64,000 nt of DNA from Macrostomum lignano. Lineage: Eukaryota. This document shows positions 45,761-57,981 of the stretch, piece by piece. Made by a program: the position numbers and the translations under genes. Every line of letters starts with the position of its first letter. Positions within the stretch are counted from its first letter, which is position 1. The stretch is from the NCBI GenBank assembly GCA_002269645.1, contig NIVC01000578.1, positions 5,036 to 69,035 on the forward strand, read 5' to 3'. The notes under the pieces are model-generated. The model saw only the letters and a list, made by a program, of their open reading frames with translations. It searched no databases and was not told where the DNA came from.

Positions 45761-46336
45761 CTAGAAATGTATTACTATGTAGATTATCAAAAAGCTACTC
45801 AAACTCTCGTCTCTGTAAATACAAAGCTAAAGCTGCCATTTTTTTCATTGTCAAACCAATCATCAACTGTCTATGGTGAGTTCAGCTCAACTGACGCTTG
45901 AAAGGAGTGCGTGGCGAACTTTATCGAACTTTATCGAATAAATTAAATGCGTGCATCTCGCCGAGAGCAGTGAATTAAGGTTAAATCTGAAACCCTTAAA
46001 AACATTCAGAAACAGGCACGGCATGCGTTAAATTGAAAGTGGCACATAGAGAGTAACAGTGATACAAAAGATAAAGAGAATCTTGAAGGGGCTACTTGTC
46101 GAATGTCAAATGACATTTATAGAAAATGGTTTTCAATTTCATTTCAGAGCAGCATCTTCGCTCCCACCACAGCCTCGCTGCAGTCGCATGCAGGTTGCCA
46201 AACGACGCAGAAAAGTTGAAGGTCTTGAGACCAAATACCTGATACACTTCATGGTCAAGCTGAGCTATTGTTACAATCTCAAATTTGCAACTCTCCATTA
46301 AGCAAATTTTGAACCGCTTATAAATGACAGATAGCC

Positions 46337-46757
46337 AGTAGTATTATACCATACAAAATTGCCAGCAAAACATTTGTCAGAAACAACTAATATTAACTCT
46401 TATTAAGGATAAATTTAACATTTTTCACTCCATTTTCGCTCGTCTTCACTACGCTCAACTCGCTCCGTTCATCCTCGCTTCATTTCGGTCAAAATGTGAA
46501 ATTTATCCTTAATAAGAGTTAATATTATTTTTTTCCGACAAATGGTTTGATGGCAATTTTGTATGGTACCTAACACTTCCAACACTTCCAAACACTTCCA
46601 AAACTTCCAACTCTTCCAACTCTTCCATCTCTTACAACACTTCCAACACTTCCAAACACTTCTATCTCTTCCAACACTTCCAACTCATCTAACACTTCTA
46701 TTACACACTAACCCGACCGCGCCCCGCAGGGGCTTGGGGCACAAAAGATTTTTTCTG
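46337..46757 (+). repeat. Left terminal inverted repeat of the Polinton (internal hairpin plus AACACTTCC ladder)
   Basis: Reverse complement of 53786-54151; carries more AACACTTCC-type units than the right copy. Confidence 0.92.
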
Positions 46758-46766
46758 TTACTAAAA

Positions 46767-46937
46767 ATGAACCGAGTTTACAACTTTTCAGTAAGTGATA
46801 CTTTTGAAACTGTTGCTAAAAATGCAGAGATAATAAAACAGCATATATTAAATGGAGTAATCGATGAAGTTTATTTAAAATGCGACAACGGGCACGAACA
46901 AAAACTTTATCCTCTAGAGTTAGATGGAGTTATATGA
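46767..46937 (+). pseudogene. Truncated Polinton ORF with a C..GH putative Zn-ribbon start
   Basis: MNRVYNFSVSDTFETVAKNAEIIKQHILNGVIDEVYLKCDNGHEQKLYPLELDGVI* ends at the switch to GC-richer DNA. A resemblance to ISXO2-like transposase N-termini is a guess. Confidence 0.35.
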
Positions 46938-47801
46938 TTTAGAACAAGAGCCACCTCGATCCCTGCATCCGGCTCAGCGCTTCTGACTGGAGCCGCATCA
47001 AAGTGACCATGACTGATTCCTGGTCACTGCGGTTATGCAATAGGTGAGCAGTATACTCCGGGTAAGGGGCTCTCGCCTGCCAGAGTTTTCTTGCAACGCC
47101 CCACCCGACGCTGCGACGTCGATGAGGCTCACCTCGGCAACGCCTTGTCCCAGCAGCACAGGCGGACACGTCGGACGAACCATTGGTCCACTTTTCTGCG
47201 CTGCAGGCCCCACCACGCTAACGACGGATCACCACAATGGCATACGTACCAGCAGCATCATCATCAGCACAACCATCCACTGCTGCCGCTGCCCTCGGCC
47301 TCAAGGATGCTGGTGCCTATGACCTCAACTGGCCCACAACGCCACCGGCCCGCAGCTCGATCTATCAGCAGCATAGTGCTCACACTTTTGGACAGTCCTT
47401 GAACACCCGCCATCGAGCCAGCCAAATACTCTACATGCTTTCGATTTCTGTGCTACTAACACTTTCACATTACCAATTTAGACGCCCCAACCTGGACTTC
47501 AACTGCCGGTGACCCCAGTCGTTTTCATTGCGTTAGTGGCAAAGTAATCGCAGCCGACCCAGCCGTTTGCCACAGCAGCTGAGCTCCGACGAGCATAATA
47601 CAAGAGCAACATTGTCTGGCTCTGGGGGGAGTTGTGTAGCGGACACATGTACTTTTGACAGAGTCAGCCACTGCTGCTCAAACTGTTTATGGCCCAAATA
47701 AACTCGAGCCGTAAAAGGCCCAGCCGCAGAACTTTATTAAAAGACAAGCGGTCTTCATCTCGCCGCACGCGAGCCGCTTCAATATCCATGAAACCACCAT
47801 C

Positions 47802-48170
47802 AATTCAACTAACAAAAAATTAATTTATGATCAAATTCCAAAACATGACAAATCCCCTATATTATTTGATGATTGCATTAACGATGGCGATCAAGAATTG
47901 CAAAAAGAAATTTTTATTAGCGGTAGAGGAGATGGAATTGGAGCACTTTATCATACTCAATCATTTAGGGAATTACGAGCGTAGATTCAATTATAAAAAA
48001 GAATGCAAGTTGTTGTGTAATGTTTGATTTAGTTGGTTATGATTTACAAAATATACATAGAAGATTTAATCCTGGAAGGGAATCAAAACTATTTAAAAGT
48101 ATGTGTAAAAAATTGGGATGATAGTCAATGCAAACATATATATCAGTCCAAGATTGTAACGGAACAATAG
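47802..48170 (+). pseudogene. A32/FtsK-like packaging ATPase remnant (Walker B onward), frameshifted
   Basis: Reads PILFDDCINDGDQELQKEIFISGRGDGIGALYHTQSF*, matching hhhhDD...F..GR....h...TQS, then VMFDLVGYDLQNIHRRF in another frame. Walker A is missing. Confidence 0.7.
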
Positions 48171-48235
48171 AATTTTAACAGATATATTACATGAGAATGA
48201 GGAAGAGGAAACGGAATAAAATTCACTCTATAAAA

Positions 48236-49400
48236 ATGGTTAAAAACTTAGATGCTATAAAACAATTGGTTGATAGAACAAGTTCAAGATTTGGCACAAC
48301 GTTACAGTTTATAATGACAAAAACCGAACAACGGATTCAATTGCGCGATCCTTTACAACTCGATCAAAGTTTAAGTTATCAAGTTGGATTAATTTTATTT
48401 TCGGTTTTCAATATGCCACAATTAATTAATGCATCAAATAATCAATTTAGATATTCTAAAGATTCTGGAGCAAATTGGACAACATTTAGTGTTAATCCGG
48501 GAGCATATAGTTATACGGATTTGAACGCATATATCGGGGGAGAATTAACAGCTAATGGTGATTGGGTAGCAGGCACAATTGTTATAGGAGTTGATTTACC
48601 ATCCGGCAGATTCACACTATCATTAGGATCTGGATATCAAGTTGATTTTAAAATTGCAAATTCACTTAGAACCATATTAGAATTTAATTCCAGAATTGTT
48701 ACCACATCAAGCACGGGCGATACCGTAGGAAACATTGAAGGCGGAGTTAATACAATTAATATAACAACTGATATCTCAAACGGTGGCTATATAACAGACG
48801 ATAACGGATTTTTGGTTCAGCGTGGAATTATATATTCAATTCCATTTCTGGCTGTTCCAATTGGAGAGAAAATGATTGTTGCACCCAAACCCCAATATAT
48901 AGGAGGCCGTAGCCCAGCGGTACCGCAGCTGCTCTGGTGTGCCAGCGACCCAGGCTCGATTCCCAGTGCAGTCACATTAATTTGGGGCTGAATTGGAATC
49001 TCGGCTTGGCTTTGCTCGTGCAATTAATGGCCTTGAGAGCCAACCCCCCAAGGCGCAGTGAAGTGTACATGCCTAACGATAAAATAAAGTTAGGGCCACT
49101 GTACACTCCTGTGTGAGTGTGTGCCTGCGTACGTATCCGCGCGCTTGTATGCCTGCTCAGGGGAGTCGGGCGGAATGGGCAGTAATGCCTCTCACCGGTT
49201 GGGCCTATGTCGTTTAAAGTGCGCCAGCCAGGGCGCGCACAACCCCCTGCCTTTAAAATAAAATAAACCCCAATATATTATCCTTTAAATCAATATAATA
49301 TTCAATCTATTTATATCAGAATTTTTTAGATGAAACCAAAAGATTAATAAATTTTGGTGGACAATCAATAACAGTAATTTTACGAATAAAGCAAGTTTAA
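48236..49400 (+). pseudogene. Polinton minor capsid (penton) gene interrupted by a SINE
   Basis: Motifs DPLQLDQSLSYQVGL, NNQFRYSKDSGANWTTFSVNPGAYSYTDLN, YQVDF, INITTDISNGGY, IIYSIPF...PIGEKMIVAP. After the SINE it continues PLNQYNIQSIYIRI / LDETKRLINFGGQSITVILRIKQV* with two frameshifts. Confidence 0.78.
48901..49264 (+). mobile_element. tRNA-derived SINE nested in the Polinton penton gene
   Basis: A box TAGCCCAGCGG, B box GGCTCGATTCC, TAAAA tail, 14-bp TSD AAACCCCAATATAT (48887-48900, 49265-49278). Homologous to 40651-41027. Confidence 0.88.
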
Positions 49401-49619
49401 TTAGATTAAAAATGGGTTATAGAATTACTTTAAAAGAACAATCGAAAAAAGTCAAAATAGCAAAAAACAGTTATGAAATTGAATTAACAAAATTGAAACA
49501 GCTTCAAGCAGAAAAAACAAGAAAGGAGCTATTAAAACAACCGACTAATAAACTAACAAAAACAAAAAGTTTTGCAATAACTTGAATGACTTTGAGTTGG
49601 AATGCTTTTAAACAAAGAT

Positions 49620-50074
49620 ATGGAGATGACACAAACAAATAATATAGAACTAACAAATTGGGCGCGGCAATTAAAAATAAAACCATTCCGATGTGTTATG
49701 CGTGATGAAATAAAAAATTTACTACAATATGGATCATTCATTGTTAATATTGAAACAACCAAAGAAAATGGTGTACATTGGTCAGCAGTTTATTCAAAAC
49801 CAAAACTTGTTTACTTTTTTTATTCTTATGCATTACCTCCATTGCAGGAAAAAAAGATAAATTTAATTATACCAAAAATCGATTATGTGGAGATTATCAT
49901 GAACAATTTCAAACCTTTGATAAAAAATATTGTGGACAAGCAGCTTTGTATTTTTGTATCGAATTAACAACTCGGCCAATGGCCGCGACTCATTTTAATT
50001 TAATAAAAATAGACATTAAAAATGATATTTTCTGGAACCCCCTCATGGAACGGGACAACACGCACAGGTGGTAA
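49620..50074 (+). pseudogene. Adenain-like (C5) maturation cysteine protease, frameshifted
   Basis: FIVNIETTKENGVHWSAVY...YFFYSYALPP (His; the usual FDS is mutated to FYS), then in a second frame EQFQTFDKKYCGQAALYFC (Gln, Cys). Confidence 0.8.
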
Positions 50075-50505
50075 TGGTGATTCAGGTGGAATTAGTGTTA
50101 CATTTGGAGACAATAGGTATATTAATGAAGATGAAGGATATAAAGAAAACTGAAATAGATACTAAATTAAATTTAAAACGGAATATTTCAAATTCATTTA
50201 ATCAAACTGAAATAGATAATTCAATAAATTTAAAACGGAATATATTAGATTCATATAGTCAAGCTGAAGTTAATTCTGTAGTTAATGCAAAAAGAGATAT
50301 AAGCGATTGCTATTCTCGAACCGATTCTGATTCGCGTTATGTTCAAACCACAGCAACTGGACCCTTGGATATGAGTAACAATCAAATTATAAATGTTGCA
50401 ATTACAACGAATAACTCCGTAGTTGATAAGAACTATGTTGATAATGAAATTGGTAGTCGTAGTTGCAATATAAATATGAATAACTCTTCAATTGTTGTTG
50501 GATAA
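50022..50505 (+). pseudogene. Fibre/tail-like repeat protein fragment
   Basis: Repeats of ~19 aa (TEIDTKLNLKRNI / TEIDNSINLKRNI / AEVNSVVNAKRDI) and LDMSNNQIINVA...KNYVD, a pattern typical of viral fibre proteins. Frameshifted after the first ~43 codons. Confidence 0.5.
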
Positions 50506-51910
50506 ATTATTTCTTGAATTTCATTAATATAGTTTGCTTCTTGCTTTGTCTTTAAGTATTGCTTCATTTTGTCTTCAACTCTAACAAAATCTTTAAACCA
50601 ACATTTTAATGTTAAACTTGAACATGTAAGAGTATCAAACAATGTCATTCCACCAATTGAATATGCAATTTCATTATACTTATGAATACACGCACATAGT
50701 GAGATATCAAATTGTAAATACTCATACGCTCGTACCATTCGTCAATCCGTTCTAAATAATCGTTCTCACTCATATCATGAACCATTGATGTCTTACACAA
50801 ATCTTCTCTAATTTTCATAGATGTACAAAAAATTTTAAACTCATTGATGCCTGTTGAAACGAACAAAGCATTATAATTGTTTGTTTTGAATCTTTGTGAT
50901 TCTTTTTTATCTTTATTTATAAAGGCTAATACGTCTTTTGTTGTATAGTCATTTACAAAAGTTATTGATAAGATTCCTCTTGGTGTTTTAAGAATTTTAC
51001 ATGGTTTAAAATTGCAAAATAGTGGTATATATGAATCGAATCTGGACGAGTTGTGCGCTATCAAAACAATATTTTTTGGCATAATTGAAAGAAGATGTTT
51101 AAACATTTTTCTGTTTAGCTCGTATTATCGTTTAAATATGTTTCAAAATCAAATATAACTACATCCGCTTTAGTTGGATTTGTTGATGTGTTAAAGGTTT
51201 TATCTCACTAATGTTTTTGCTCGTTGGTTCTTTGAATACTATTTTATAATTGTCTTTTATCCGTTCTAATCTGATTCCTGTCTGTTTATTGGATATTAAA
51301 CAATAATGACCAATGTGATAATCGTTCGAGTGATAATAATTTAACAATAGCCAATCGTGTATAATTTTTCTTTGGGGCTTTGGTTCTATTCCTCGATTCG
51401 TTGGATTATATAAAGCCATATTCAAATTAAATTATTCGTTGAATTTTCCTATTCTTGAATTTGTCATTAAACCTCTTTGGGTTCTTGAATCATTCAACCA
51501 AGCTCCATATGCTTCTTTGGGTGGTGCGCTATCACCATAAATAAATTGAACATACTTATAGAAATAGTTTTTATCAGATGGTATATAACAATAATCGTCT
51601 TGGTACTCTTCTATTTCACATATTACGTTAGTGCCCATACCTTGCTTTGATCTTTCATGTTTCAGTGTAATTATATTTGGTGTCATTTTGAGTCTTCCAG
51701 AAAACACATTAGATTCATATCATAGTTTTCAACTAGATGTTTAATCCAAGCTTGAAACTGATTTATATCATAAAATGATACCAAGTATTGATTAATTTCT
51801 TCGCGATCATCTCCACTATTAAGATAAAAGTATTGGACTCTTGCATTAGTTATTTCAACACTATATCCATTTAAAATTTGTGTTTCTATAAAATCTAATA
51901 CATTCTGCAT
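50500..51910 (-). pseudogene. Protein-primed family B DNA polymerase, N-terminal and 3'-5' exonuclease part only, multiply frameshifted
   Basis: Colinear fragments include LIAHNSSRFDSY (ExoII-like HN...FD), EWYEYLQFDI (ExoIII-like Y...D) and TLTCSSLTLKCW. No polymerase-domain motifs are visible. Confidence 0.72.
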
Positions 51911-51974
51911 TGGCTCAAATCGATAGACTCTGATAAACTCTTCAAGCGATATTTCGGGTTGTGGATTCCTTGGT

Positions 51975-52229
51975 TTACGACGTGGCTTTTTTGATTTTTT
52001 CTAACTCTGCTATTCTTGCTTCATATCGTGCGTTTTCTATTAACCTTCTCATTTCATATTCTGCCCTAATATTTGATGCTAATTCTTCTGTTTGTTGTTG
52101 TTGTCTTTCTCTTTCAAAGTTTCTTTGGCGCATTTCAATTTGCTCAATTTGTCTTTGTAATCGATTGAGCTGTGCGCGCTCGTTGGCAAGAAGTTGTCGA
52201 ATCTGATTTGGGGTTAATATTTGTTCCAT
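51975..52229 (-). CDS. Small Polinton coiled-coil protein (84 aa)
   Basis: Intact ATG ORF rich in Q/R/E heptads, lying inside the element. Confidence 0.5.
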   Translation of the reverse strand: MEQILTPNQIRQLLANERAQLNRLQRQIEQIEMRQRNFERERQQQQTEELASNIRAEYEMRRLIENARYEARIAELEKIKKATS

Positions 52230-52311
52230 TTTATAGCAAAGAATTTATAGAATGTTTGATTGAATAGTTTTTTAATTTGGGTTTTTGTGGCCTAGACCCC
52301 CCACTAGTCGC

Positions 52312-53190
52312 CTACTTGAGTTCCGCTTTTGGTAACAGTAATCCTTTGCCTGAAACGGTTCCTTGTAGAAAAATACCAGAACCTGCTTTTGGTCTCATTT
52401 CGAGATATAATCCGCTTCCATCATGTTTTTCAATTATGTTAAAATCTTTTCCTAATTTATTAAAAATCTTTTGAACTGCTGGCCTAAAGTTGGCTCCAAC
52501 ATTATCAAAAAATCCTTTAGCTTTTTCGCCGGTTTTTTCTAAAGTTTGACCAAATTCATGCAATTTATCTGCTACAATTCCGTCACCATGAGTTGTGCCT
52601 TTTAGAATTAGCCCAGTGCCGTGGGTTGTTCCTTGTAACATTAAACCTTTTCCAGCTGCTAGTCTGGCTTCTGCATTTCTTTTTTGTGCCGCTGTTGCCG
52701 AACTGCTATTAATGGCATCTATAAGTTTTGTTTAAATTGAGCGTCCTGTGTTATTTGCTGTCTTTGGAATTCAACCTCTCGTTTAGCTTTTTCATCTGCA
52801 GCTTTTTTCTCATTTACTGCTTTTGCAATTCCAGCTGCTCCGCCTGCTAATCCACCAGCTGCTTCGATTCCTGCAAAAATTATTGGTAGCAAAGTTGCAA
52901 GTGGTAATATGCCCCCTTGTTTTGCTTTTAATTCTCCTAGTTGTTTTCTATTATCATGAATTCTTTTGGCTGCTAATGTAGTTGCTCCTGCTGCTCCAAG
53001 TCCTAAAAGAATTGGTAGAATGGGCAATAATCCACCATCCTTTTTTGTGTGTCTCTATTAAAAATTTCACATCCGATTCTGTTAATCGATAAGTTTTATT
53101 GTTATGTTTAAATGAAATTGGTCTTCCTTCTTGTGCATATTTTGCAGCTAGTTTAAATGTATCCATATCATAATCTAATATTTTTCCCAA
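52312..53190 (-). pseudogene. Polinton core-protein-like ORFs (adenovirus pVII/pX-like motifs), frameshifted
   Basis: Motifs KDGGLLPILPILLG, KQGGILPLATLLPIIFAGIEAAGGLAGGAAGIAKAVN and GSGLYL...GSGIFL. The GG-hLP motifs resemble protease-processed core proteins. The frameshift at ~53045 joins ORFs 52954-53190 and 52719-53027. Confidence 0.6.
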
Positions 53191-53333
53191 CCTATCTAAT
53201 CTTTTTAGGATGGTGTGACTAGAATTATTCCAATTTAAGCAGGCTACTATTTCAGCTAAGAAATATATTCTATTTTCATCGTGATCTCCTCCCCAATAGT
53301 TTGGTGATAAAAACTGAGTCCATTTTTATATGA

Positions 53334-53744
53334 CTAAAACTTCTTTAATCCTTTTCCGCCTTTAATCGAGTTTAACACTTTATTAAAATCTTGGATGTCT
53401 TTATTGCTCAGAGGGGTGCTTTTAGTGGGTGTTTCAGTAGGCTGTGCGGCTTGGGCTGTTTCTTGTGCTAGCTTTAAATCTTTCATTGCTTTTATTTGAG
53501 AAATGGTGTCGTTAAAATCATTCATTTTTTTGAGCTCCTCTGCTGCCTTAGCTGCTTCTATTCCACCTTTAACCGCATTGGTTACTGAGCCGGCTGCTGA
53601 TCCCGCTTGTGCTATTAGTGGCATATTATCTTTAACTAAATTTGCTGCCGTACCTTTCATATCAAAAAGGCCTTCACCTCTATATTCTACTGGGTTTCCA
53701 ATTTGTATTTCATTCAGATTGTATGCGTGTGTTATGCGTGTCAT
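53334..53744 (-). CDS. Polinton small putative virion protein (136 aa)
   Basis: Intact ATG ORF beside the right TIR, with YRGEGLFD and a terminal IKGGKGLKKF Gly-rich motif. Confidence 0.55.
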   Translation of the reverse strand: MTRITHAYNLNEIQIGNPVEYRGEGLFDMKGTAANLVKDNMPLIAQAGSAAGSVTNAVKGGIEAAKAAEELKKMNDFNDTISQIKAMKDLKLAQETAQAAQPTETPTKSTPLSNKDIQDFNKVLNSIKGGKGLKKF

Positions 53745-53785
53745 TTTTGTCTATTTTTAGTAACAGATTAGAGATTTAGTATATT

Positions 53786-54151
53786 TAGAAAAAAGCTTGT
53801 GTGCCCCAAGCCCCTGCGGGGCGCGGTCGGGTTAGTGTGTAATAGAAGTGTTAGATGAGTTGGAAGTGTTGGAAGAGATAGAAGTGTTTGGAAGTGTTGG
53901 AAGCGTTAGAAGTGTTAGGTACCATACAAAATTGCCAGCAAACCATTTGTCAGAAACAACTAATATTAACTCTTATTAAGGATAAATTTCACATTTTGAC
54001 CGAAATGAAGCGAGGATGAACGGAGCGAGTTGAGCGTAGTGAAGACGAGCGAAAATGGAGTGAAAAATGTGAAATTTATCCTTAATAAGAGTTAATATTA
54101 GTTGTTTCTGACAAATGGTTTGCTGGCAATTTTGTATGGTATAATACTACT
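53786..54151 (-). repeat. Right terminal inverted repeat of the Polinton
   Basis: Reverse complement of the left TIR; contains perfect 78-bp inverted arms at 53920-53997 and 54064-54141. Confidence 0.92.
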
Positions 54152-55300
54152 ATAGCCTTTTCAGATCTCGTGCATTCGCGTACAAAACGATGACATGAAA
54201 ATAATCGCTAAAAAGTCGTTGCAAACAACTTTCTAGTGACTCTAGCGACTCTTGTGACTTTTTAAAAACTCGAACGCATCTAATGCGATGAGTGGGCGAC
54301 TGTTGCGTCACAAGCGCGATAGTTATAGAATTGTAAGAGTCACGAAAGAGTCATCCAGGATTCGTTATGTTGGCGCTCAACTTCGCTAAAGATGTGACTC
54401 TGACTCATCAAGCAATGCAAATGTGCTTCAAACACAACTCAGTGACTCTTGCTACAGCGACTCTACCACACGTAGGACTCTACGGTCTCAGATTCTACGA
54501 CTCTATGGTCCCAAAGTTGCTATACCGTCGCACCAGAGTCACTTGCCTCGCCCCAAAGTCGTTTCAGAGAGTCGCAGATAATAAAAGGTTTCGACTCTTG
54601 GACGACTCTGTGGCGACCCAAGTGACTCTGGAACGCTTTTTGGTCTAAGTGTCGTTTTCATCGGGAGTTCCCAGCAAGTCGCAACCGACGGCAAAAATGC
54701 CTGCCTCGTAGCCTAGGCCAGACTGACTCCTGCTCTGCTCGCGGCAATTTCTATGCGGCAGGCAAAGAATCTACGAGCCAGTTTTTCATAGTGAATAAGA
54801 AGCAACAAAGCAAGGAATCGCGGGCATTTCGCCATCGGAGTCAATTGATAAGATTTTGGCTTTTCATTAATATTTTCGAACATTCGGATCAAGTACAATT
54901 CACTGCTTAGTAATTATGCAGCTCTTGTGCAAGCATTGGTGACAACAAATATTTTAGCCCTTTGCTAAGCTGTCAATACAGCAGTTAATTTGAAAAAAAA
55001 CCAGGTATAAAAATAGACCCTTGCGCCGCCTTGTACAGCCTTTGTGCTTAATCTGTAAGGGCATAGCTGCACTGCAGCAGAGGAGAGAGAAGAGAGAAGA
55101 AAGGGCGGCGGGCAGCAGTGTACACTGCATAGCATACAAGAGTGTGACGGCTTTTCATTGTGCGTTGCCTATAGCAACCAATTGGGGGAAGGGCGGAAAT
55201 TCAAATTACAGAGCTGCGAGGGCAATTTTGATACAATCTATGCAGTTGCTAAACCTTGAGTCAGCTAAATTTTCTACGATATTCTTCAGGATCCGATAAA

Positions 55301-57981
55301 ATGATGCAGGCCAGCTTCACTATTGGCGTGGTAAGTCGGCTTGGTTGCAGATTTGAGCCAGAGGCGCGGCCAGGTAGGGACAAGGGGGCCACCGGTGCTA
55401 AAACCCCCAGTGCTAAAGCCCCCAGTGCTAAAGCCTCCAGTGCTAAAGCCCCCAGTGCTAAAGCCTCTAGTGCTAAAGCCTCCGGTACTAAAGCCCCCGG
55501 TGCTCAAGCCCCCCGTGCTAAAGCCTCCAGTGCTAAAGCCTCCGGTACTAAAGCCCCCCGTGCTAAAGCCCCCGGTGCTAAAGCCTCCGGTGCTAAAGCC
55601 TCCGGTGCTAAAGCCCCCAGTGCTAAAGCCTCCAATGCTAAAGCCTCCGGTTTCTAAAGCCCCCAGTGCTAAAGCCCCAGGTACCAAAGCCCCAGGTACC
55701 AAAGCTCCAGGTACCAAAGCCCAAGGTACCAAAGCTCCAGGTACCAAAGCCCCAGGTACCAAAACCCCAGGTACCAAAGCCCCAGGTACCAAAGCCCCAG
55801 GTACCAAAGCCCCAGGTACCAAAGCCCCAGGTACCAAAGCCCCAGGTACCAAAGCTCCAGGTACCAAAGCTCCAGGTACCAAAGCCCCAGGTACCAAAGC
55901 TCCAGGTACCAAAGCCCCAGGTACCAAAGCCCCTGGTGCTAAAGCGGCACCATTAAATGAAGTGGGCACCTTAAGAGGCCGCCTCCAAGTCAGAAATACA
56001 GGCTACCTAATGGTTTAAATTTCAATGCACCCCGCTTCCCTTCGAGTTCAAACCATTCTTTTTATTTTTTGTTACTCTTTGCATTTCAGCCGTCTGCCCC
56101 AAGTTCGAGACCGTTCCCGCAGCATCTGACGCCCCATCTAGCACAGATGGGAGTCCCGATGGAACAGGCTATGGGTGAGTGTGTGAAATCATTGCTTAGA
56201 TAAATACTACAGAGTCTGCATCCCGAAGTTCTCGTAGACGATTACCCTAGAAAATATCAGAATATATTTGCTGTACCACAAAACTTTATAAGCCCTTGTA
56301 GTTCTTTGTTCTGTAATCATACTTGCATGAAAACCAATTTGAAGATCGGCAATTAGCGCGTGCGACTCTGGCTTGATTCTGGCTTGATTCTGGCTTGATT
56401 CTGGCTGATTCTGGCTTGATTCTGGCTTGATTCTGGCTTGATTCTGGTTCTGGCTTGATTCTGATTCTGGCTTGATTCTGGCTTGATTCTGGTTCTGGCT
56501 TGATTCTGATTCTGGCTTGATTCTGGCTTGATTCTGATTCTGGCTTGATTCTGATTCTGGCTTGATTCTGGCTTGATTCTGGCTGATTCTGGCTTGATTC
56601 TGGCTTGATTCTGGCTTGATTCTGGTTCTGGCTTGATTCTGATTCTGGCTTGATTCTGGCTTGATTCTGGTTCTGGCTTGATTCTGATTCTGGCTTGATT
56701 CTGGCTTGATTCTGATTCTGGCTTGATTCTGATTCTGGCTTGATTCTGGCTTGATTCTGACTTGATTCTGGCTTGATTCTGGCTTGATTCTGGCTTGATT
56801 CTGGCTTGATTCTGGCTTGATTCTGGCTTGATTCTTGGATCTCGTGCAGTTCTCGCCCATGAGGCACCCCAAAGGCACGGAGAGTGTGCGGCTTGATGAT
56901 CCTGATGATAGAAATTAGGACCACCGTGTACTTGTGTGAGCATATCCCTGTGTACTCGCACGCATCCGTTGTGCTCAAGGGTCAGATGAATGGGCGTGAC
57001 TCACTGCTCGCCTCCCCGCTGGCTACAGCTCAACTACAGTAGCTGAATTATGCTGATTTTGGCCGTAATGGGCGGTGCGCTCTCGCTTTGGGTAGCTAAG
57101 CCGTCAAAAAGACGCCCGATTTACCCGCGCACTACTGAAAACAACTTGCTCATCTCCTTTGCTTCCAGGCTACTGGAACACCTTCAACCACTTCGACTTG
57201 GACGGCTCCGGCACCATCAATGTGCAGGAGATGGTGACCGGCTTGCAGCTCATGGGACAGTGCCCCACGCCCAGCGATGTGCAGAACATGATGATGCAGG
57301 CCGATCAGAGTGAGTCTGCCTACTGCGATGGGTCGTCAAGCTTTTGTTCGTGTCTTTTGCTTTCTTGCGCTTCTCGTCATACCATTTAGACTGAGACTGG
57401 ATTTAAATTAGATTAATCATGATTAAAGCCTTGATTGAAATGCTTTCAGAGTAGCAATGATAATCGAGTATTAATCATCAGTGCCTGCTGACACGAGTAA
57501 ATTAAGTCCTCTGCAGGTGTCACTGGGGTATTGTCAGTTTATTGCTTATTCGCCGTTTCCCACAGACCACGACGGTCAGGTGGATTTCCTGGAGTACGTA
57601 AGGGTGACTCACGCGCGAGTGCAGCCACCGCAGGCGGTGCAGAATGACCTCATGACGGCCTTCCGCGTGTTCGACAGGGACGGCAGCGGCTACCTGGACG
57701 CGAATGAGCTGCGAGCGGTGCTCTGCCAGCGCGGCATGAAGGAGAGCGACTTTAACCATGTGATGTCCCTGGTGGACCTGGACCGCGACGGCCGCATCAA
57801 CTACAACGAGTTCGCCGGGCTGATGACTCGGCCGCTGGAGACAATGATGAAGCAGCAGCACGGCAAGGGGCACAAAGATGGCAAGCATCACAAGGACAAG
57901 AAGGACAAGAAGCACAAGAAGCACAAGAAGCACGGCAGCGGCAGCGGCAGCGGCAGCGGCAGCGGCAGCGACAGCGACTGA
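55301..57981 (+). CDS. Calmodulin-like four-EF-hand protein with Lys/His-rich and Gly-Ser tail
   Basis: Phase-consistent exons 55301-55330, 56090-56174, 57169-57309 (DLDGSGTINVQE), 57566-57981 (DQNHDGQVDFLE across the junction, DRDGSGYLDANE, DLDRDGRINYNE). The first two exons are less certain. Confidence 0.85.
55390..55945. repeat. 15-bp minisatellite (AAAGCCCCAGGTACC variants) in intron 1 of the calmodulin-like gene
   Basis: Tandem array; explains the KAPGT/KPPVL ORFs. Confidence 0.93.
56368..56836. repeat. 11-bp minisatellite (TTCTGGCTTGA) in intron 2 of the calmodulin-like gene
   Basis: Tandem array; explains the SSQNQARIKPE ORFs. Confidence 0.93.

Follow-up and report, generated by a model that had tools for sequence, protein, structure and literature searches.

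Polinton/Maverick elements are defined by terminal inverted repeats (TIRs) of 100-1500 bp, by (AGT)2 or (AG)3 tips and by a target-site duplication of 5-8 bp, usually 6 bp (PMC8097293; 10.1101/2023.08.22.554363). The words "hairpin" and "palindrom" are absent from the main text of these two papers; their supplements and repeat-database entries may differ. On Polinton end structure the literature consulted holds one direct precedent, a 2026 preprint, which in the part available describes palindromes in the TIRs, beside the target duplication, of Halocafeteria virophages and PLV subtype 4 and proposes a role for them in replication (10.64898/2026.07.28.741278). Those palindromes occur mainly in non-pPolB elements and measure 52 nt in subtype 5. 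In adenovirus and PRD1 the textbook route for the displaced strand is a panhandle, for which direct evidence is lacking in the account consulted (PMC11886824). Parvovirus ends such as those of AAV carry long imperfect fold-backs (PMC11575299), and bidnavirus ends, as described in PMC4061559, form no hairpins of the parvovirus type. At quasi-palindromes, template-switch mutation overwrites one arm with the other (PMC8604942; PMC8794818); when the switch is intramolecular, the spacer is left uninverted (PMC8604942).

We have analyzed a window of 64,000 nt from Macrostomum lignano (contig NIVC01000578.1), in which an earlier note had described a Polinton with a long hairpin inside each TIR. The element and its relatives are like animal Polintons/Mavericks in their (AGT)2 end motif, 6-bp duplication, long TIRs and, in relatives of 17-19 kb, the set of polymerase, integrase and ATPase; unlike the animal Polintons described, each TIR here holds a long fold-back cassette, of which there are two forms, type A and type B, unrelated in sequence and interchangeable. 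Like the Halocafeteria virophages and PLV subtype 4, they have palindromes in the TIRs beside the target duplication, but here the family is a pPolB family, the arms are ~80 nt and the loops 66-142 nt long, one form excludes the tip, the stems covary and end types are exchanged. As in the adenovirus/PRD1 panhandle, a duplex origin would be regained by intramolecular pairing and homology restored too, but here both partners would lie within ~250 nt of the same end, making the pairing local and not end-to-end. The replacement of one arm by the other around an uninverted spacer recalls quasi-palindrome mutation; here, however, the tracts span tens of bases, the spacer is 66 nt and the product has been carried to both termini of a mobile element. 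With parvoviruses such as AAV the family shares a long imperfect fold-back at both ends, but there is no flip/flop, no Rep/HUH gene was found in the two relatives scanned, and the type A tip is unpaired.

The Polinton copy in the window

The element occupies 7,815 bp (46337-54151, no strand assigned), begins with AGTAGT and ends with ACTACT, and is flanked by the 6-bp target-site duplication ATAGCC (46331-46336 on the left and 54152-54157 on the right, both + strand). One short-read contig spans the empty insertion site, so the insertion is polymorphic. When 12 proteins from one full-length relative were used as tblastn queries, the window copy gave matches to parts of the ATPase gene, to three unnamed genes, to a PX-like gene and to the polymerase in its N-terminal half; neither the integrase nor the polymerase domain was found with these queries. 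The A32-type packaging ATPase fragment lies at 47817-48143 (+ strand), where it is matched by the family protein that matches PF04665. The polymerase gene is in broken pieces from which the PF03175 region is absent (50478-52244, - strand), and a further gene, likewise broken, weakly matches Adeno_PX (core protein X) at 52315-53217 (- strand). The window element is a non-autonomous, internally deleted derivative of a Polinton.

A Pfam scan of two full-length relatives of 17-19 kb identified a PF03175 polymerase, an rve integrase and a PF04665 ATPase, the rve matches (E values of 2e-7 and 1e-6) being slightly below the Pfam cut-off. For the double jelly-roll capsid, penton and maturation protease there are candidate ORFs without an informative match (single-sequence model pLDDT of 30). 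Judged by its sequences, the family is a bona fide Polinton/Maverick: TIRs tipped with AGT repeats and a 6-bp duplication are joined, in the relatives, by a protein-primed family B polymerase, an integrase and a packaging ATPase.

Several other features of the window were recorded. A very high-copy repeat lies inside a Polinton gene (48900-49265; contig depth >190,000 in all four runs), and no tRNA was called in it. A GC-richer segment (46940-47730) is unmatched in the full-length relatives C13 and C581 and is probably a second insertion within the element. Host minisatellites are present at 55293-55984 and 56329-56785, with periods of 15 nt and 11/17 nt.

Hairpin geometry at the two ends

At both ends the hairpin starts 10 nt inside the terminus and consists of two 78-nt arms 66 nt apart, exactly where the earlier note had placed them. 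The left arms (46347-46424 outer and 46491-46568 inner, + strand) are 92% complementary; the right arms (53920-53997 inner and 54064-54141 outer, - strand) are 100% complementary. The 10-nt tips (46337-46346, + strand, with the (AGT)2 motif, and 54142-54151, - strand) are left unpaired in the predicted fold. That a single strand could form terminal hairpins, as had been suggested, is borne out by folding the TIRs as single-stranded DNA (z of -13.6 for the left and -19.6 for the right; none of 100 shuffles was as stable). The loops (46425-46490, + strand, and 53998-54063, - strand) have the same orientation relative to their own tips. The left loop is C/T-rich with a CGCT-type motif about every 15 nt; on the 5'-terminal strand the loop composition is 8 A, 26 C, 8 G and 24 T, and it is predicted to be almost without structure on either strand (-1.1 and -1.4 kcal/mol). 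Inward of the left hairpin are degenerate 9-nt CCAACACTT-type repeats (46569-46700, + strand) and, near the inner TIR boundary, a small GC-rich stem-loop (46721-46733, + strand), a similar one of which follows both end types. A supposed similarity between the loop motif and the Rep-binding repeat of AAV was dropped.

The six mismatches of the left arms lie at 46370 and 46417 in the outer arm and at 46528, 46531, 46536 and 46550 in the inner arm, and five of them are C>A or G>T. Each site is covered by short-read contigs with 0 differences from the window (runs X1, X2 or X8), which rules out assembly error and bears out the about six left differences first reported. Every mismatch is private to one arm, and at no site do both right arms stand against both left arms; by this comparison the six are point changes in the left end. 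If changes were equally likely in either end, all six would be in the same one with a probability of ~0.03, which is suggestive only. Conversion of the right end, along the lines of the asymmetric repair or conversion that had been hinted at, therefore fails as an explanation of the left/right difference; conversion did take place, but at an earlier time, and its result is common to both ends.

Type A ends across the family

Type A ends, to which those in the window belong, were gathered by similarity and tip pattern. There were 59 tip-like matches, 56 of which start with AGTAG; three of the 59 were inner-arm matches and were dropped, and the remaining 56 ends represent 34 distinct junctions. 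Tip, outer arm, loop and inner arm are all present in 38 of the 56, and the fold-back is kept in at least one copy at 30 of the 34 junctions. One of the 18 ends without the full set is the C2173 end with a reversed loop. The usual form is imperfect: a stem of ~25 bp is followed by a 20-nt bulge in the inner arm, then by a variable middle part and finally by the inner stem; it is found in 18 of 21 distinct ends that were aligned (20 from the set of 56, plus C3733).

In this alignment the outer stem is 96% paired, and five pairs are changed on both sides. None of 500 shuffles came as high and slid controls were paired at 28-43%, although relatedness alone can beat shuffles. The inner stem is only 67% and 57% identical between ends, and pairs with its own partner at 87.5% of positions versus 61.7% with the partners of other ends (register taken as the best of nine offsets); 16 of its 21 columns contain more than one Watson-Crick pair type. 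The loop (93% identical) is more conserved than the inner stem, and the bulge is 90% identical. Hence the compensatory changes that the earlier note proposed to look for are present, and the one-off local inversion that it named as the alternative is not what the relatives display. A reading of the cassette as structured RNA was rejected, there being no Rfam match and hardly any changes of the G-U type. Relatives of the cassette beyond this genome were found neither by pattern in viral and metagenome contigs nor by integrase in viral contigs.

Of 11 type A elements whose two ends were paired, 9 have a perfect target duplication. The duplication is perfect in the C1052 insertion, where, as in its duplicates, both ends lack most of the inner arm and there is no fold (z of +1.7).

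Overwriting of one arm by the other

From comparison with relatives, the perfect arms of the window are derived from the bulged family form. The window end has 7 differences from its nearest relative, C665, in the first 178 bases, two of which make up a matched pair; beyond this point the window has, where C665 has a bulged inner arm, a duplicate of its own outer arm, and the family bulge is lost. Likewise C925 and C1680 differ from C1377 at one position over the first 172 nt and then lose the bulge. These two ends are identical to each other over 290 nt although their junctions differ, which shows that the end was propagated in its corrected state. Overwriting runs from outer to inner arm in the window, C925 and C1680 and in the type B end C1307, and from inner to outer arm in C581 and C393. 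In two lineages insertion went on after loss of the conserved bulge. Changes of this kind are common to the two ends of an element, which in 4 of 11 paired elements have 0 or 1 differences over 250 nt.

Very probably the arms are matched by intramolecular template switching during replication of the element, followed by TIR-TIR homogenisation that carries the result to the other end. The polymerase would briefly copy one arm from the other and so keep both matched. The absence of loop inversion is what intramolecular, and not intermolecular, template switching is expected to give.

Three observations concern rearranged ends. C665 (L004), C632 (L038) and C4756 (L047) have one junction and two end variants, both of which are fitted by read contigs; in one the inner arm runs on until it falls 1 nt short of copying the whole tip, and in the other there is a deletion from arm into loop. 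A 242-bp perfect palindrome with two tips is located at the window's insertion site in C2173 (75438-75679). It was rejected as proof of a between-arm deletion: its left flank has three empty-allele variants and its right flank is that of the filled allele, the target duplication is imperfect, read contigs cross the empty site, and, among the pieces listed, the three-difference read contigs fit the C665 and C632 copies better than C2173 by their starts and ends. It may be a haplotype chimera in the assembly. Lastly, a 335-bp type B mini-element (C12:947145-947479, L123) has two outer arms around a sequence like the right-end loop and a perfect 6-bp target duplication, which suggests that deletion between arms of opposite ends can occur.

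Type B ends and a second family

From 150 scored integrase matches, 28 loci with contig room were typed by reading 3 kb outward: 21 are type B and 4 type A, one is interrupted, one is truncated and one meets another end. All 25 recognisable family ends among these loci are predicted to fold; they represent two unrelated sequences, and the loop is poor in G. Only CCAACACTT-type repeats are common to type A and B end sequences. Tip-pattern matches number 180 for type B versus 47 for type A. The type B arms are ~80-90 nt, include base 1 and surround an A/C-rich loop, which in four measured cases is 99-142 nt long with 0-4 G; two ends that were folded gave z of -12.5 and -15.5. The first 27 nt of type B ends are 95.8% paired with their own partner versus 81.6% crosswise (14 distinct ends).

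The 345 nt adjoining the TIR were used to build a tree of 36 out of 40 rows, the window being among the 4 too short. Along it the A/B label changes 8 times, at least 4 of them forced, and A and B are separated in none of 200 bootstrap trees; a tree of this kind does not distinguish exchange of the cassette from recombination within the element body.

A second Polinton family, with an integrase 62-64% identical, yielded 13 ends in 16 stretches (L108-L120; L107, L112, L121). Ten of these have a 25-bp palindrome that includes the tip; the other 3 have a different end without a long hairpin (z of -1.3; only a 19-bp inverted repeat). At L106, where a family integrase lies some 1.3 kb away, an AGTAGT-tipped end unrelated to A or B has a tip-inclusive palindrome of ~20 bp (z of -4.7).

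Comparison with parvovirus-type ends

Loop orientation is uniform. Of the 56 type A ends, 52 have the loop one way round, 3 lack it and one has it reversed (C2173, an unconfirmed contig), which is 52 of 53 scorable ends; in type B it lies one way in 44 of 44 ends, these being the ends with a listed tip among 46 loop-junction matches, within the matches listed. Some parvovirus ends keep a single orientation, so that the lack of flips is not decisive. No Pfam match to an HUH/Rep endonuclease was obtained in 21 ORFs of at least 150 aa from two full-length relatives. The 3' end of type A leaves 8-11 nt unpaired, while that of type B is paired to base 1. Signs of protein priming, namely the AGT-repeat tip and the PF03175 polymerase, are retained in the family. 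Given the absence of flip/flop and of an HUH/Rep match in the ORFs scanned, the unpaired 10-nt tip and these retained signs, the likeness to parvovirus-type ends that the earlier note drew is not supported. The accompanying idea of a structure beyond the standard protein-primed model fares better in one respect: two-sided stem changes, together with an unrelated end type that folds alike, make a structural role plausible, although the signs of protein priming are kept. An accessory HNH-like gene with a weak endonuclease VII match is found near the integrase in one copy (L063:3341-3928); as a candidate hairpin resolvase it was rejected, since it is absent from the three other stretches tested and from the window and thus is not general.

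Possible roles of the fold

We give an even chance to the combined reading that the hairpins are the window's copy of a family fold-back end cassette, that their arms are matched by arm-to-arm copying and that the fold is a local origin. Protein-primed strand displacement would leave one strand single, and a duplex origin is needed at its 3' end. A local fold at each end of the displaced strand would rebuild the duplex start site without having to find the far end, and the G-poor loop would not compete with the duplex. The folded 3' end would present, in type A, an unpaired template tail of 8-11 nt beside the duplex and, in type B, a fully paired tip. It may serve as a putative replication origin, a step to which we give slightly less than even credence. 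In phi29 duplex origins outdo single-stranded ones, with an optimum at 6 unpaired nucleotides, but origin activity falls when the non-template strand exceeds the template in length (PMC4150772); since this is the geometry of a locally folded end, it counts against a local origin. As an analogy, then, the phi29 data cut both ways. Against the fold being necessary are the fold-less C1052 insertion and the loss of the bulge. The second-family ends without a long hairpin (3 of 13) also count against the combined reading, as does the presence of the cassette, among the sequences searched, in this genome only.

The C1052-type ends also fit a neutral by-product, in which occasional fold-back of the polymerase makes or re-perfects inverted copies at the ends and nothing matters beyond the tip, the loop motifs and the outermost 25 bp, all of them as binding sites for proteins on duplex DNA. 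Overwriting is frequent and goes in both directions, sequence conservation peaks in the loop and outer stem, and the covariation is no proof of selection on the fold because template switching alone yields compensatory changes (PMC8794818). Yet two unrelated cassettes are alike in arm length, in a G-poor unstructured loop and in orientation, and the bulged form persists in 18 of the 21 aligned type A ends, neither perfected nor decayed, which makes a mere by-product rather unlikely. Alternatively the fold could serve another step, by giving the integrase a duplex end on a single-stranded intermediate, by protecting the end or as a packaging signal. Its location at both ends and its conservation at the level of structure fit any step of end recognition, but type A leaves unpaired the very tip that an integrase must engage, and we consider this improbable. 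Self-priming as in parvoviruses, directly in type B or after trimming of the 8-11-nt tail in type A, has in its favour that type B palindromes reach base 1, so that the folded 3' end would be a recessed primer, that phi29 polymerase trims 5-nt 3' tails (PMC4150772) and that such a model was proposed for Halocafeteria virophages (10.64898/2026.07.28.741278), but is the least probable in the face of a lack of the flip/flop shown by AAV (PMC11575299), no HUH/Rep match in the relatives scanned, the retained tip and AGT repeat and an HNH-like gene that is not general.

The local-origin reading can be extended, more tentatively, to Polinton ends in general: these may be modular origins defined by structure, in which an own fold-back at each end replaces the long-range panhandle, repairs itself through template switching and can be exchanged between co-resident elements for an unrelated sequence with the same shape.

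Conclusion

On the sequences compared here, the family has a family-wide, self-correcting end structure, the unexpected part of which is that two unrelated cassettes of the same predicted shape occur on one body. Terminal palindromes are thus not limited to the non-pPolB relatives. The restart of synthesis on the displaced strand of Polintons has so far only been modelled, and the two unrelated natural cassettes, with their bulged, corrected and fold-less variants, are short substrates for separating shape from sequence. The shape probably helps to copy the ends of the element; if the modular-origin reading is true, one family would have two origin types with near-identical proteins.
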